A stretch of 40,415 bases of DNA from a virus (IMGVR_UViG_3300042360_000483:1-40415); one strand, 5' to 3'. Shown: positions 67 to 40,229, counted from the stretch's first letter. Made by a program: numbers and translations. The notes: generated by a model from the letters alone, not told the origin.

Positions 67-108
67 TGAGGGGAAATGTCGTATTTGACGCGGGAAGACG
101 TCGTAATT
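67..108 (+). repeat. Left end (attL) with two transposase-binding repeats
   Basis: TGA at 67; ATGTCGTATTT 76-86 and ACGTCGTAATT 98-108, 22-bp period, first site starts 9 bp in from the terminal base. Confidence 0.85.
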
Positions 109-179
109 GCCGGGAAGAAGTGAAACCAAACCGACAAAAACGCAAACGAAAATCAACGGCCTTGCCGCAGGTGAAAAGC

Positions 180-593
180 CTAGAACGGGAGATCAACCTG
201 GACTGGCGGCACGCCGACTCGGCCGATGCGAGCCAGATGTTTGCATACCTGACGCCGAGACAGACCGGTGGTACGCACAATCTGGCCAACGGTGTAGCCC
301 TGTGATCGCAGGGTGGCGATGATCCGAACGGTCTGAGCGGTACGCCAGTCTGGCTGGCGGTGTAGTGCATCGGGGTATGCGACGACACGCTCGCCGTCGA
401 TCACCGGGAAGCGCGGAATGTATTCCTGGGCGCCTCCGATCCGGTCGCAGATCGACAAAACGCACGCACGCGCCACCTGTCGTGCGCGGTCTGACTGCAT
501 CGACGCGGCCGACACAAGCGTCGCCTCGACCGCGGCTGCCATGTCGTCGACGATGGTCACTGTCACTCGATTACCCACGTGCGTCAGCTCCAC
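180..593 (-). CDS. mor: Mor/C-family transcription activator (start uncertain)
   Basis: IGGAQEYIPR motif followed by a C-terminal HTH (GYTVGQIVRTTGLSRRQV); last gene of the early operon, after gemA. Confidence 0.7.
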   Translation of the reverse strand: MELTHVGNRVTVTIVDDMAAAVEATLVSAASMQSDRARQVARACVLSICDRIGGAQEYIPRFPVIDGERVVAYPDALHRQPDWRTAQTVRIIATLRSQGYTVGQIVRTTGLSRRQVCKHLARIGRVGVPPVQVDLPF

Positions 594-1011
594 GCGTGAC
601 GCGCGCGATCCAGCTTTTGAGCGACTCGGTCAGGGTCTCCAACTCTGCTGGCCTACGGTCGAGCCACTCGATGCGATCGACGCCGGTCTGGCGCTTGCAG
701 AAGACGTTGAGCGACCGCGCTGAACGGTCCGCGACCGCGCCGAGCTGGTGCAGCTCGCCCCAGAGCGCGAGCAGCTTGCGGATCCGGGGCGAGGTCTTGT
801 TAACGCCTGGTGTCCAGCCGAGATGGCGCAGGTGCTCAAGCACGCGCTTGCGTCCGCCCCAGTCGAGGTCGCCGGCTGAGCGGACCCGCGCGACGGCATG
901 CAGCATCGCCTCATACGTGTCGCGATCAATGCCGAGCTGTTTCGCCGCGATGTGAATCTGCGCAAGCTCGGCCCTCCGCAGAGCGGCGCCATTGCGCTCA
1001 ACCGAGGCCAT
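571..1011 (-). CDS. gemA: GemA / Mu gp16 (DUF1018) family regulatory protein
   Basis: LAQIHIAAKQLGIDRDTYEAML...SAGDL...RKLLALWGEL...LKSW pattern; position before mor. Confidence 0.85.
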   Translation of the reverse strand: MASVERNGAALRRAELAQIHIAAKQLGIDRDTYEAMLHAVARVRSAGDLDWGGRKRVLEHLRHLGWTPGVNKTSPRIRKLLALWGELHQLGAVADRSARSLNVFCKRQTGVDRIEWLDRRPAELETLTESLKSWIARVTRGADARG

Positions 1012-1336
1012 ATTGTGCTGACGAAATCAAGTTAGGCCTCAAGGCGGCGCGCAGGCGGTCACACACACCCCACTCGTCGCCGTCGCGCTCAAGCGTGGCA
1101 ATCGCCTCACGCAACGCGCGCTCCTGCTTCTCTGCCATCAGCAGCAGGGCGCAAGCCCGGCCGACGTAGACGTGCCGAGAGAAGTCGACCAGGGGCTGGC
1201 CGCGGTAGCTGTAGGGGTGCCCGTACTCTTGTCGCAGCGCCATCCGAATCTCCTCCCACTCGGTGTGTTGAGGCCGAACTGGCGTTTCGAGCCGACCCGC
1301 GTCGGCGGGCGGCACCTGTGCGTCTTCATGCTTCAT
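998..1336 (-). CDS. Hypothetical protein, cassette 1 cargo
   Basis: GGAGG RBS and ATG inside attC-A; N-terminus AGRLETPVRP is encoded by the L''/R'' boxes. Confidence 0.7.
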   Translation of the reverse strand: MKHEDAQVPPADAGRLETPVRPQHTEWEEIRMALRQEYGHPYSYRGQPLVDFSRHVYVGRACALLLMAEKQERALREAIATLERDGDEWGVCDRLRAALRPNLISSAQYGLG

Positions 1337-1371
1337 CTGCGCCTCCTTGGCGGCTCAAACTATCGTTAGGC
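1273..1371 (+). other. attC-like recombination site A
   Basis: R'' GCCGAAC 1273-79, L'' TTTCGAGC 1285-92, L' GCTCAAA 1353-59, R' GTTAGGC 1365-71; extra C and extra A on the top strand. Confidence 0.8.
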
Positions 1372-1605
1372 CACATACGCGCGCCACCACCAGCGCCAGT
1401 ACTGGAGGCTCAGGAATCGGCCCCAGCCCAGCACCTCAGCGTGCATGCGCATGCGCACCTTGGCTGCTTCGCGCATGTTGATGGGCTCCAGCTTCGCCAG
1501 CGCGGCCCCGTACAACTCAAAGGCGCGGCGGGCTTCATCCAGGCTCATCCCTGTGCCGCGCACTCTAGGCAAGTCATTGGCGGTTGTGTGCTCGTTGGGT
1601 TCCAT
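1366..1605 (-). CDS. Hypothetical protein, cassette 2 cargo (ATG 1605; TTG 1626 alternative)
   Basis: ORF ends on a TAA formed by the R' core of attC-A; Trp-rich C-terminus. Confidence 0.6.
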   Translation of the reverse strand: MEPNEHTTANDLPRVRGTGMSLDEARRAFELYGAALAKLEPINMREAAKVRMRMHAEVLGWGRFLSLQYWRWWWRAYVA

Positions 1606-1608
1606 GTG

Positions 1609-1709
1609 GCCTAACTCTTCGGTCAACGGCGACCCGCCCCGGCGGGCCGCCTTGTTGCATCTTCCTACGTCAGCAGCGCCGGGTCGGTCGCGTTACCTCT
1701 ACGTTGGGC
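1609..1709 (+). other. attC-like recombination site B
   Basis: R'' GCCTAAC 1609-15, L'' GGTCAACG 1621-28, L' CGTTACC 1691-97, R' GTTGGGC 1703-09. Confidence 0.82.
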
Positions 1710-1713
1710 GTCT

Positions 1714-1959
1714 TCAGGCACGCAGAGCGCCCAGCACTTTGCGCTCGCAGTTTGCGTACCCTTCGGCCTCGCCATCTGCCCACGCCACTGCCAGCAGCCC
1801 ATCCATCGCATACGCAGCACGGAAGCTCGGGAAGTCCTGTCGCACAACAACCTCAACATCCCCAGTGCGGCGCTCTTCGGTGTAGCGCCACACGGCCACG
1901 CCGGATTCATCGTCCGGGGCGGCGCTGTTTGCCGTGAACTCAAATTTTGGCTTGCTCAT
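1714..1959 (-). CDS. Hypothetical protein, cassette 3 cargo
   Basis: AAAGGA RBS before ATG; ORF fills the cassette between attC-B and attC-C. Confidence 0.7.
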   Translation of the reverse strand: MSKPKFEFTANSAAPDDESGVAVWRYTEERRTGDVEVVVRQDFPSFRAAYAMDGLLAVAWADGEAEGYANCERKVLGALRA

Positions 1960-1989
1960 GTCGTCCTTTCGCGCCTTCGTTCACCAGCC

Positions 1990-2040
1990 GCCCAACCCTC
2001 GCTCAAGCCGACCTTCGGCGGCTTAGCTCGAACGTTAGGC
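1990..2040 (+). other. attC-like recombination site C (short, 51 bp)
   Basis: GCCCAAC-cctc-GCTCAAGC-cgaccttcggcg-GCTTAGC-tcgaac-GTTAGGC; classic 59-base-element architecture with extra C and A. Confidence 0.85.
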
Positions 2041-2042
2041 CC

Positions 2043-2357
2043 TCAAACCGGCCAAAGGTGGTTGCCGTGGCAGTCGTCGCCTGCGGCAGCGCCAAGGCAC
2101 ATACCAGCAGCTTCGTCGGCCGTCATTGCGCCGCACTGCTGGCACGGCGGCTGCTCCCATGCGTGCCGCGCTTCAGCGCACGCGCGGCACGCATGGGCTC
2201 GCTTGTCCACGCCGTGCGACACCTCGCCGCAGCGCTGGCAAGTGTTCATGTAGTTGCCGGGCGCGTAGCCGTAGCGCAGCAGGTGCTCGAACCCGCTCGC
2301 GTCGGGCCTAACCCCTCGCTCAAGCTGACCGGCCACGGCGTCACTGTTGGTTGTCAT
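2043..2357 (-). CDS. Cys-rich (CxxC x3) putative Zn-binding protein, cassette 4 cargo
   Basis: GAGGAG RBS and ATG inside attC-D; GYAPGNYMNTCQRC...CRAC...CQQC. Confidence 0.72.
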   Translation of the reverse strand: MTTNSDAVAGQLERGVRPDASGFEHLLRYGYAPGNYMNTCQRCGEVSHGVDKRAHACRACAEARHAWEQPPCQQCGAMTADEAAGMCLGAAAGDDCHGNHLWPV

Positions 2358-2398
2358 CGTTGCTCCTCGCGGCCGTGTCCGGCAGCTTAGCGTTAGGC
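2306..2398 (+). other. attC-like recombination site D (L'-R' spacer missing)
   Basis: R'' GCCTAAC 2306-12, L'' GCTCAAGC 2318-25, L' GCTTAGC 2385-91 directly abutting R' GTTAGGC 2392-98. Confidence 0.78.
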
Positions 2399-2410
2399 CC
2401 TACGCTTCAA

Positions 2411-2644
2411 CTAGGTCAGCACTTCGGCCAAGTCGTGCCGCAAGCTGTCCACGCTGTCGCGCATCTCGCGCATGTTGCGCGCCGCCTGCATCTGCGTCGG
2501 CAGGCCCGGCGGGTATGCGCAGCCCTTGAACGCCTCTCGGATATCGTCATCCACGAACTTCAGTTCGTCCGGGTACATCATCGGCAGCGTCGCAATCACC
2601 GGCGACACGTTGCCAACAATGCTTACTTGCTCTGCGTCCATCAT
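2411..2644 (-). CDS. Hypothetical protein, cassette 5 cargo
   Basis: GGAG RBS at 2649-2652; ORF fills the cassette. Confidence 0.65.
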   Translation of the reverse strand: MMDAEQVSIVGNVSPVIATLPMMYPDELKFVDDDIREAFKGCAYPPGLPTQMQAARNMREMRDSVDSLRHDLAEVLT

Positions 2645-2663
2645 CTCGCTCCAGTTAAAACGG

Positions 2664-2724
2664 GCCTAACCTGTCGCTCAATTCCAGCGACGCGCTACGC
2701 GCGCCGCTGAACACGGCGTGAGGC
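2664..2724 (+). other. attC-like recombination site E (degenerate)
   Basis: R'' GCCTAAC 2664-70, TTCCAGCG / CGCTGAA arms with extra C, variant R' GTGAGGC 2718-24; R''-L'' spacer 10 bp instead of 5. Confidence 0.62.
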
Positions 2725-2891
2725 CAAAGAAAACGGTGATCCGGCTCACCGCGGGCCAGCCGCGCCTGGTGCACTTGTTCGCCGCTCGCGCGGCTAGGGG
2801 CTCCCATCGTCGACCTGCGGGTGTTTTTTCGTCGGCCCACCGCCCGCTGGGACCGGCGTCGGCATCCAGCTCGCCGACGCATCTGCATGTG

Positions 2892-3431
2892 CTATGCGTC
2901 GAGGCTCTTGTCGTGCGCGAGCAGCGCGCTGACGAGCTTGTCGATTTCGCTTTCGGTGTCGCGAACGACCACCTGGTCGTCGTCGTCCTTGATGCTGACG
3001 CCAATGCGTTTGAGGTCTGCCGCCGAGAGCTGTTCGAGCGCGGCGCGGATGGGCGTGCGCTTGATGTCGATCAGCGCGTCGGCGGCGTCGGGCAGGTGCT
3101 TGTCGATGAGGCGGCAGACGGCCTCGCCATCGTCGTACACCAGCTTGCCTTTGCCCTTGGTCCAGCCGAACTTGACCCCGTCTACCGTCAACGTGCGCGG
3201 GCGATCGAACAGGTCTTTTCGGGTCTCGACCATGTGGCGAAGGGCGGCCTCACTGGCGCTCGCACGCTCAACTGCGCGCGTGATCTGCTTCATGGCTCGG
3301 CGTTTGGCCTCGGCAATCTCCGTCTGCAGGGCGCTGACCAACAGCCGCAGGTCGCGTCGATGCTCTGCATGCTTGCGCGCGGCAGTTTGGATCAGGTCCA
3401 TCGTGATAGCTTGATCGGTGGCGGTGGTCAT
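2892..3431 (-). CDS. gam: Gam-like host-nuclease inhibitor (DNA end protection)
   Basis: Coiled-coil N-terminus, then LFDRPRTLTVDGVKFGWTKGKGKL...LKRIGVSI, typical of Mu Gam relatives; early operon position. Confidence 0.7.
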   Translation of the reverse strand: MTTATDQAITMDLIQTAARKHAEHRRDLRLLVSALQTEIAEAKRRAMKQITRAVERASASEAALRHMVETRKDLFDRPRTLTVDGVKFGWTKGKGKLVYDDGEAVCRLIDKHLPDAADALIDIKRTPIRAALEQLSAADLKRIGVSIKDDDDQVVVRDTESEIDKLVSALLAHDKSLDA

Positions 3432-3438
3432 GTGGTCC

Positions 3439-3618
3439 TCATTCGATGGTCTGGCAGAAGCTGCTGAGTCGCAGCTCGAAAACGTAGCGGCGGCCGCCTC
3501 CCGGCGCGTCGTAGTACGTAGTCCAGAGGGTCTCGCCGGTCTGCGCGTAGCGATACAGCGCCTGAGCCAGCAGGGCGGGCGCCTCCGGCGGGGGGGGCAA
3601 CGAGGCCGGCTCAGTCAT
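3439..3618 (-). CDS. Hypothetical protein
   Basis: ATG 3618 overlaps the upstream stop (ATGA coupling). Confidence 0.55.
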   Translation of the reverse strand: MTEPASLPPPPEAPALLAQALYRYAQTGETLWTTYYDAPGGGRRYVFELRLSSFCQTIE

Positions 3619-40135: not shown

Positions 40136-40187
40136 TGTTGCTTGTATGGCTATTCCTTTGCCGCCAGCGAAAAGCCGACTACGCGCC

Positions 40188-40229
40188 ATTTATGACATTT
40201 TCGGTTCCGATTTATGACGTCGCGCTTCA
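40188..40229 (-). repeat. Right end (attR) with two transposase-binding repeats
   Basis: ATTTATGACAT 40188-40198 and ATTTATGACGT 40210-40220 (reverse complement AYGTCATAAAT), 22-bp period, same 9-bp offset from terminal TCA; mirrors the left end. Confidence 0.88.

Follow-up and report, generated by a model that had tools for sequence, protein, structure and literature searches.

The viral sequence IMGVR_UViG_3300042360_000483, 40,415 bases that were analyzed in full and are called the window here, carries between the genes gemA and gam of a Mu-like phage an array of five units of 326-358 bp, each running from a GTT core to an attC site, which raises the question whether these units are genuine integron cassettes that move and, if they are, what moves them. 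The initial annotation had proposed that the R'' box of each attC pairs with the upstream core of its own cassette, the expected trace of a former circle integrated at G|TT, and had read this pairing as a sign of real mobility. Our analysis makes it likely that the locus is a cassette array with an attI-type site in a Mu-like early operon, whose units natural relatives of the phage acquire, drop and exchange at G|TT, with an integron integrase (IntI) supplied in trans as the most likely agent. The five sites (51-101 nt) have the R'' (RYYYAAC) and R' (GTTRRRY) boxes, 50-150 nt apart and enclosing L''/L' repeats, that characterize attC, the exceptions being attC5, where R' reads GTG, and attC4, in which the R' spacer is missing; with at least two attC sites and no neighboring intI, the array belongs to the attC-site clusters that have no integron integrase (CALINs). 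No intI gene lies beside the array, as it would in a complete integron, and gemA occupies the place where it would stand.

Natural variants of the array

The contigs of eight public sequencing runs were aligned to the array region; run X1, which may be the source of the window, was left out of the count, and parts of the region that the contigs of a run did not cover were not read as absent. In X7, one contig skips exactly cassette 3 (from 1700 to 2032, 331 nt, with 5 nt of ambiguity and at least 255 letters on each side), and the same joint is found in X8 as an overlap of contig ends; attC2 stays whole where cassette 3 is lost. X3 has a joint from 1030 to 1365 by which cassette 1 is lost (334 nt; a contig-end overlap with a side of 33 nt), cassette 3 is swapped there for 267 other letters within a single contig, and cassette 1 (1031-1372) is also present between other flanks. 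A single contig of 19.2 kb in X10 has cassettes 1 and 3 replaced and cassettes 2, 4 and 5 in place. The pieces found in X2 and X4 follow the order of the window, and the RNA run X15 has contigs on the flanks only (800-988 and 2692-2950).

Eight metagenome contigs contain the 23 nt to the left of the first cut, with flanks 93.7-99.2% identical to the window, and all eight depart from it 3-8 letters from G1031, with five different first cassettes and with cassettes reused in other orders; this left-flank pattern had 0 matches in viral contigs. In L227 a new cassette is followed by cassettes 4 and 5. A G|TT junction inside the open reading frame (ORF) of cassette 5 (2563) connects it to an intact attC in L226, L229 and L231, with no upstream homology and GTT alone shared; the attC-bearing cassette of this junction has a normal neighbor in L232, and one cassette of L226 recurs at 91.5% identity in the viral contig L044, which gave no backbone match to the window within the fetched locus. 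Including the window, about ten array arrangements were found on a backbone 94-99% identical. The same cassettes were thus found beside other neighbors, as the initial annotation had asked of mobile units, both in public-run and in metagenome contigs and with breakpoints on G|TT, and these variants support the view that the units are real cassettes moving as circles joined at this point.

Integron-derived relics, exchanged by homologous or microhomology recombination at the attC repeats without IntI, could also be suspected behind these arrangements, since different phages have attC modules of 90-100 nt that are alike at 96-99% identity and occur in great numbers in the same lake samples, and two of the replacements retain the first 9 and 19 nt of the lost cassette. 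However, the attI-type site shares only 3-8 letters before divergence, the loss of cassette 3 leaves attC2 whole with only its 5 nt of ambiguity, the ORF5 junction shares nothing beyond GTT, and all these breakpoints sit on the IntI cut, which makes recombination without IntI quite improbable. Generic hairpins or terminators, or assembly chimeras, are highly improbable: GC-rich DNA folds readily and repeats can misjoin assemblies, but the attC detector found 0 sites in 59 kb of shuffled loci, the junctions at 1031 are flanked by unique sequence on both sides, and separate studies yielded identical variant joints (X7 and X8; X3 and X10). Joints between attC3 and attC4 with sides of about 20-26 nt (e.g. 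2040 to 2306) were rejected as attC sites of other organisms.

Other junctions were noted along the array and at its distal end. Hybrid sites, in which two different attC sites meet at one and the same G|CT point of the attC5 loop, concern the window (2692-2724), L232 and run X15. After the first cassette of L228, an attC is apparently joined at GTT in the middle of a plus-strand gene fragment beside a DUF488 gene (PF04343), probably as a secondary-site junction. L233 and L072 represent a sister lineage with other gam-side genes (in L233, a tape-measure fragment, PF20155) and no attC5, the divergence falling exactly at 2718-2719 of the window. Cassette 4 is followed by cassette 5 in all cassette-4-bearing variants seen, as if the two were locked, and the spacer-less end of attC4 lies at 2386-2398 of the window; because the 6-nt spacer on its R' side is missing, attC4 is possibly crippled.

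Pairing of the cassette ends and orientation of the genes

The left cores of the five cassettes start at 1031, 1365, 1703, 2034 and 2392, and their R'' boxes end at 1279, 1615, 1996, 2312 and 2670; each unit spans the sequence between the TT of its core and the G of the following one. Over 12 nt, the R'' boxes match their own and the next core at 11 and 9 positions in cassette 1, 12 and 8 in cassette 2, 10 and 6 in cassette 3, 9 and 11 in cassette 4, and 9 and 7 in cassette 5. Taken together, the own cores reach 51 of 60 matches against 41 of 60 for the next cores, and among the 720 assignments of five R'' boxes to six cores 3 reach at least 51. All five pairings of the initial annotation are correct; over 16 nt the signal is weaker, with 31 of 720 assignments as good. 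Cassettes 1, 2, 3 and 5 each favor their own core, and the R'' of cassette 3 does fit the core on its left and not the one on its right, whereas cassette 4 is uninformative, as the first 9 nt are common to cores 4 and 5 and, over 12 nt, core 5 is the better match for its R''. Circularization of the cassettes in silico at G|TT, which had been proposed along with the pairing, gave the better folds: the bottom-strand folds of the circles (R box plus 5 nt) sum to -133.2 kcal/mol versus -107.0 kcal/mol for the linear sites, with 2 of 720 assignments as good (24 of 720 with the bare 7-nt R box).

As a control set we used 66 viral and 154 bacterial loci carrying one R''-L'' motif (among the matches listed), with full flanks for 80 of the bacterial ones; before counting, we removed duplicates, units whose length was not within 200-1300 bp, and units in which an attC had probably been missed. 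The own core beats the next one in 124 versus 12 of 150 viral cassettes in the fetched loci, and in 149 versus 9 of 177 bacterial cassettes among the matches listed. Own-core pairing is therefore real, but among integrons it is nothing unusual, with bacterial arrays showing it just as strongly, and the accessible text of an earlier work (PMC2674596) already defines the attC of a cassette as its circular form. Pairing can show neither which strand recombined nor whether movement continues, since a crossover at R' and one at R'' alike leave the gene body with both its left core and its R''. What stands of the step from pairing to mobility is that these are circle-type cassettes, which is borne out by the natural variants at G|TT; pairing alone is silent on the strand and on present movement. 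The unusual traits of the locus, which are its reversed ORFs, the attI-type site at 1031 and the missing integrase, go unmentioned in the initial proposal.

The plus strand of the window appears as the attC top strand by an extra C in L'' (attC1, attC3 and attC4), by a negative GC skew of this strand in all five sites and by a more stable fold of the minus strand in four of five; extra L'' base, folding bias and GC skew are the strand criteria given in the accessible part of PMC5027507. All five ORFs are antisense to their own attC, on the minus strand and in line with gam and gemA of the early operon, in contrast to the canonical bacterial layout, where the ORF lies on the attC top strand upstream of attC and is expressed from the cassette promoter Pc. 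Full-length relatives at 61-99% identity exist for ORF2, ORF3 and ORF5.

One could object that the recombinogenic strand is the other one and that ordinary sense cassettes have been misread, given that attC sites are near-palindromic, that own-core pairing is symmetric and that some attC sites recombine their top strand at a low rate, as stated in the accessible part of the same source (PMC5027507). Against this stand the extra L'' base, the folding bias and the skew, as well as the natural losses, which take the gene body and the attC on its right (331 and 334 nt) in accordance with the bottom-strand rule, whereas a unit with its attC on the left would measure 381 nt for cassette 3; furthermore, the ORFs are still reversed beside a phage-encoded intI with its attI. 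A misread strand is thus very improbable.

The reversed orientation extends beyond the window. A codon model trained on the genes of the window phage called 128 of the 150 viral cassettes antisense, 1 sense and 21 unclear, and among the 177 bacterial cassettes it called 22 antisense, 78 sense and 77 unclear, the many unclear bacterial calls being due to that training. Orientation by the longest ORF had been rejected as too noisy (80 versus 44 of 128) and was replaced by the codon model together with a PHROG check, in which 27 viral cassettes with an ORF of at least 60 aa on both strands gave PHROG matches for the antisense ORF in 10 cases and for the sense ORF in 0. The stop lies in the left core for 56 of the 128 viral antisense ORFs, the mirror image of the stops in R'' for 34 of the 78 bacterial sense ORFs, and an in-frame start with a ribosome site lies inside attC in 32 of the 128 viral antisense cassettes. 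Reversed polarity is the rule in the related viral contigs, the opposite of what is found in bacteria. Two side observations concern the ends of these ORFs: in the viral loci L006-L071, ORFs starting within attC have short N-terminal peptides in common, which come from two reading frames across L'' and R'' (16 and 16 of 32) and are a possible marker at the protein level, and ORF5 of the window stops early (2411-2413), running to the core TAA (83 aa) in its relatives in X8, X10 and L227.

The probable entry site and the proposed source of the integrase

No hairpin belongs to the left junction of the array itself: within the 95 nt upstream of it AAC occurs once, at 1000, and is left unpaired with the core in the fold. 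When the junction was compared with 29,450 GTT sites of the fetched loci, counted with their duplicates, the closest was the attI next to a phage-encoded intI, at 12 of 16 positions, and two more such sites score 10, a likeness that is modest since chance matches reach 11 of 16. With a matrix derived from 28 sites that lead arrays in other viral contigs, the left site ranks first of the 788 GTT sites of the window (10.8 versus 8.5 for the next), and it also ranks first, narrowly (6.3 versus 5.3), with a matrix from 10 bacterial sites, 3 of which look like attC ends and not like attI; 15 of 25 bacterial intI loci had no pairable first cassette inside the fetched flank. On the basis of this rank and of its reuse, the left junction is read as a predicted attI-type simple site in front of the first cassette.

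An integron integrase may also act here on a left junction that is by chance a secondary (attG) hotspot, so that the array would have been built from stray insertions, which differs from the reading preferred here only in the origin of the site. The accessible text of Loot et al. (10.1101/2022.09.11.507474) gives GWT as the secondary-site consensus and reports that hotspots with an 18-nt minimal site recombine near attI rates; in addition, the site overlaps the gemA start region, and the distant gemA relatives L001-L005 have no array beside gemA. The first rank of the site with the matrix of the leading sites of other arrays, and its nearest match being an attI beside a phage intI, make a chance hotspot rather unlikely. 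Homology-free GWT junctions, and deletions reaching sites close by, are described in the same accessible text and resemble what is seen at 2563; unlike the present case, those were obtained in a laboratory assay and on host chromosomes, whereas here there is one fixed, reused phage entry site together with a standing array.

An integrase was searched for in the window record, which gave 0 matches to PF00589 (tyrosine recombinase) and no match in a tblastn search with phage IntI. Of 50 bacterial genomes, 34 encode an IntI that passes the TIGR02249 cut-off; among the 11 nearest to the host flank the number is 9, a rate that is biased because these genomes were picked for the attC motif. Among 50 related viral records (20 further viral loci were outside the search), 3 encode IntI, two of them by an identical gene, and the complete viral integrons L234, L235 and L236 (records G015, G027 and G007) consist of intI, attI and reversed cassettes, the ORFs of which run in the same direction as intI. 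The two distinct viral IntI proteins are 67% alike and 41-54% like the fetched bacterial IntI. The breakpoints suggest IntI action, and the integrase would most likely be supplied in trans, by the host or by a co-infecting phage.

In the mechanism that we propose, IntI would recombine the folded bottom strand and excise a unit as a circle, in which R'' would pair with the unit's own core, and the circles would insert mostly at the attI-type site beside gemA, which would explain why the gemA end of the array is the most variable and the gam end the most constant. The early phage transcript would enter from the distal end and read the cassettes, which would account for the reversed genes and would require no Pc promoter; a weak scan for such a promoter from the attI side found 0 sigma-70-like sites in 100-3500 versus 0.4 expected. 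The ribosome site and the start codon could come from the hairpin (for ORF1 and ORF4) and the stop from the left core (for ORF2 and, among relatives, ORF5), and the cargo pool would be one of phage-type accessory genes.

Several observations weigh against this proposal, in addition to the modest attI likeness, the attC-like ends in the bacterial matrix, the biased IntI rate and the unclear bacterial orientations given above. Among the contigs of the runs, which are the material covered, no circular cassette was seen and no backward-going joint listed. The distal junction G|TG at 2718 and the L232 junction G|CT inside attC5 do not fit GWT, and the joints in X3 and X8 are contig-end overlaps. 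Folded unconstrained and without extension, attC1 does not form a single hairpin; it also has no strand bias, and attC5 is degenerate, with an unclear strand. Finally, the window record is linear and an estimated 83% complete, so that the phage could conceivably carry an integrase elsewhere, though gam and gemA directly flank the array.

Cassette content, phage context and relation to known systems

The coordinates and main properties of the features are collected in Table 1.

Table 1. Features of the cassette array and of its surroundings in the window.
Feature	Position	Strand	Properties
gemA (Mu GemA family)	574..1011	-	PF06252, E 4.7e-25; fixed flank at the attI end of the array; flank 93.7-99.2% identical in 8 metagenome contigs
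attI-type simple site (predicted)	1015..1037	+	crossover G1031|T1032; no own hairpin; putative entry point for new cassettes
Cassette 1	1032..1365	+	334 bp; missing from X3 (1030 joined to 1365) and exchanged in X10; X3 record 11 has it between different flanks
ORF1	998..1336	-	112 aa, without a family; attC1 holds its ribosome site and ATG; frame runs across L'', R'' and the attI site
attC1	1273..1371	+ (top)	99 nt; copies 96-99% identical on unrelated gene bodies in other viral contigs
Cassette 2	1366..1703	+	338 bp; other neighbors in X3, X7, X8, X10
ORF2	1366..1605	-	79 aa, no family; stop is the TAA of the left core on the bottom strand; 4 full-length relatives, 80-97% identical
attC2	1609..1709	+	101 nt; kept where cassette 3 is absent or replaced
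Cassette 3	1704..2034	+	331 bp; precisely absent in X7 (single contig) and X8; other unit in X3, X10
ORF3	1714..1959	-	81 aa, conserved unnamed family; 37 proteins including the window's own, 61-100% identical; no Pfam or PHROG
attC3	1990..2040	+	51 nt
Cassette 4	2035..2392	+	358 bp; different upstream neighbor in L227; gene body on attC1-type site in L218
ORF4	2043..2357	-	104 aa, Cys-rich, weak double zinc ribbon (PF18912, E 1.8e-4, below curated cut-off); ribosome site and ATG inside attC4
attC4	2306..2398	+	93 nt; without the 6-nt spacer before R' that 99-nt copies elsewhere have
Cassette 5	2393..2718	+	326 bp; distal, most constant; in X3, X7, X8, X10, L227; cut at internal GTT (2563) in L226, L229, L231
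ORF5	2411..2644	-	77 aa, no family; 9 related proteins, 70-99% identical
attC5	2664..2724	+	61 nt, degenerate; R' is G|TG, not G|TT; distal array end
Mu Gam-like gene	2892..3431	-	PF07352, E 6.4e-9; fixed flank at the distal end of the array
Host DNA past the phage end	40230..40415		90-92% identity in 11 of 50 genomes searched, 7 named Rubrivivax

None of the five ORFs matched PHROG, and against Pfam there was only the sub-threshold match of ORF4; in the Atlas, ORF3 and ORF4 fall into unnamed clusters only, or have scores under 0.9. The variant arrays carry as cargo an N6/N4 DNA methyltransferase (PF01555) and a phosphoadenosine phosphosulfate (PAPS) reductase-like protein (PF01507, phrog_424).

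The attC modules are reused on different genes: attC1 is found at 96-99% identity on unrelated genes in L221-L223 and attC4 at 97-99% in L031/L219, L041 and L220, and in L218 the gene of cassette 4 is combined with an attC1-type site and has a core and an R'' of its own that match, the junction there being diverged over about 25 nt. There are 28 pairs of long viral attC sites with a likeness of at least 88%; the two members are attached to unrelated bodies in 24 pairs (one of which is a mis-called start) and to the same body in 1, and 3 pairs fall in between. Within the pairs the identity stops 3-11 nt from the R'' end, in 6 of them right at AAC. Identity runs of 7-8 nt at R'' are expected because the search motif favors a shared R''. 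The attC1 and attC4 modules were not found at high identity in the bacterial loci among the matches listed. Module reuse fits exchange at R'' or repeated formation of new cassettes, and proves neither.

Since 24 of the 28 near-identical attC pairs sit on unrelated genes and the gene of cassette 4 occurs on two attC modules, it can be suggested tentatively, as a possibility that we hold to be doubtful, that the phages of lake Burkholderiales keep their own pool of cassettes of opposite polarity and make new ones by in-frame joining of attC modules that bring a ribosome site and a start codon to new phage genes at R'', possibly by IntI on the top strand (AA|C), and that polarity also serves as a filter. 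If this were true, host cassettes, many of them anti-phage, would be silent in a phage attI and phage cassettes would be silent in a host attI; anti-phage cassettes are the topic of two recent works, as far as their accessible text goes (10.1101/2024.07.02.601686 and 10.1101/2024.07.02.601719).

The window record has the marks of a Mu-like transposable phage (phrog_310, phrog_296, PF07352, PF06252, a weak PF08765, and host DNA at its end). By Pfam and PHROG, the minus strand of the first 11 kb encodes a transposase, a transposition ATPase, Gam, GemA and a Mor-like gene, and beyond the early region the plus strand has head- and tail-type genes as read by eye, the profile scan having covered the last tail gene. 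The final 186 bases resemble bacterial DNA and 7 of the 11 matching genomes are named Rubrivivax, therefore a Rubrivivax-like member of the Burkholderiales is the likely host, as judged from this flank. Just inside it (40165-40215), a 9-nt motif occurs in two copies, probably as transposase-binding sites of the phage end. On the minus strand at 2733-2752, just upstream of the array in the early transcript, there is a terminator-like hairpin at chance level (2 found, 2.1 expected). A blastn search of the array region against annotated phages gave one Gam match and one short chance match only.

Mu-like phages have a variable early region, with small accessory genes between gam and gemA/mor in the early operon. 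Unlike there, the variable genes here are bounded by attC and change at G|TT. Phage attC clusters as such are known already: the accessible text of Qi, Rajabal, Ghaly, Tetu and Gillings 2023 (PMC9892861) reports 17 phage CALINs and the use of 5 of 6 phage attC sites by IntI1; these CALINs resemble the present array in having attC clusters without intI and, as cargo, small hypothetical genes and DNA methyltransferases, while the CALIN of the Shewanella prophage M16-3 likewise has its own attI. Differing from what we report here, that text mentions neither an antisense rule nor natural turnover, and none of its phages is called Mu-like. When re-examined, its TJE1 array had the normal sense orientation, and in the ctTUS972 CALIN (L270, MW202573, 2250-4800) the attC top strands are minus and the annotated ORFs plus, so that an array of the reversed type exists within that data set, not remarked on in the accessible text. 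The sedentary chromosomal integrons of Rubrivivax-like Burkholderiales share the R''-L'' motif and own-core pairing, and IntI is present in those bacteria; their ORFs, however, are mostly sense with the stop in R'', whereas the viral sets are antisense with the stop in the left core. A literature search, with subscription journals mostly outside its coverage, found no paper on reversed phage cassette polarity or natural turnover, and the reversed polarity was not found in print in the texts accessible to it.

Phage attC clusters had been reported as rare and their natural activity was open. About ten arrangements on one backbone come close to direct field evidence for the turnover of phage accessory genes by integron recombination without a detectable integrase of the phage's own, and the reversed layout, the starts within the hairpin and the identical attC modules on unrelated genes provide a testable handle on the origin of cassettes.

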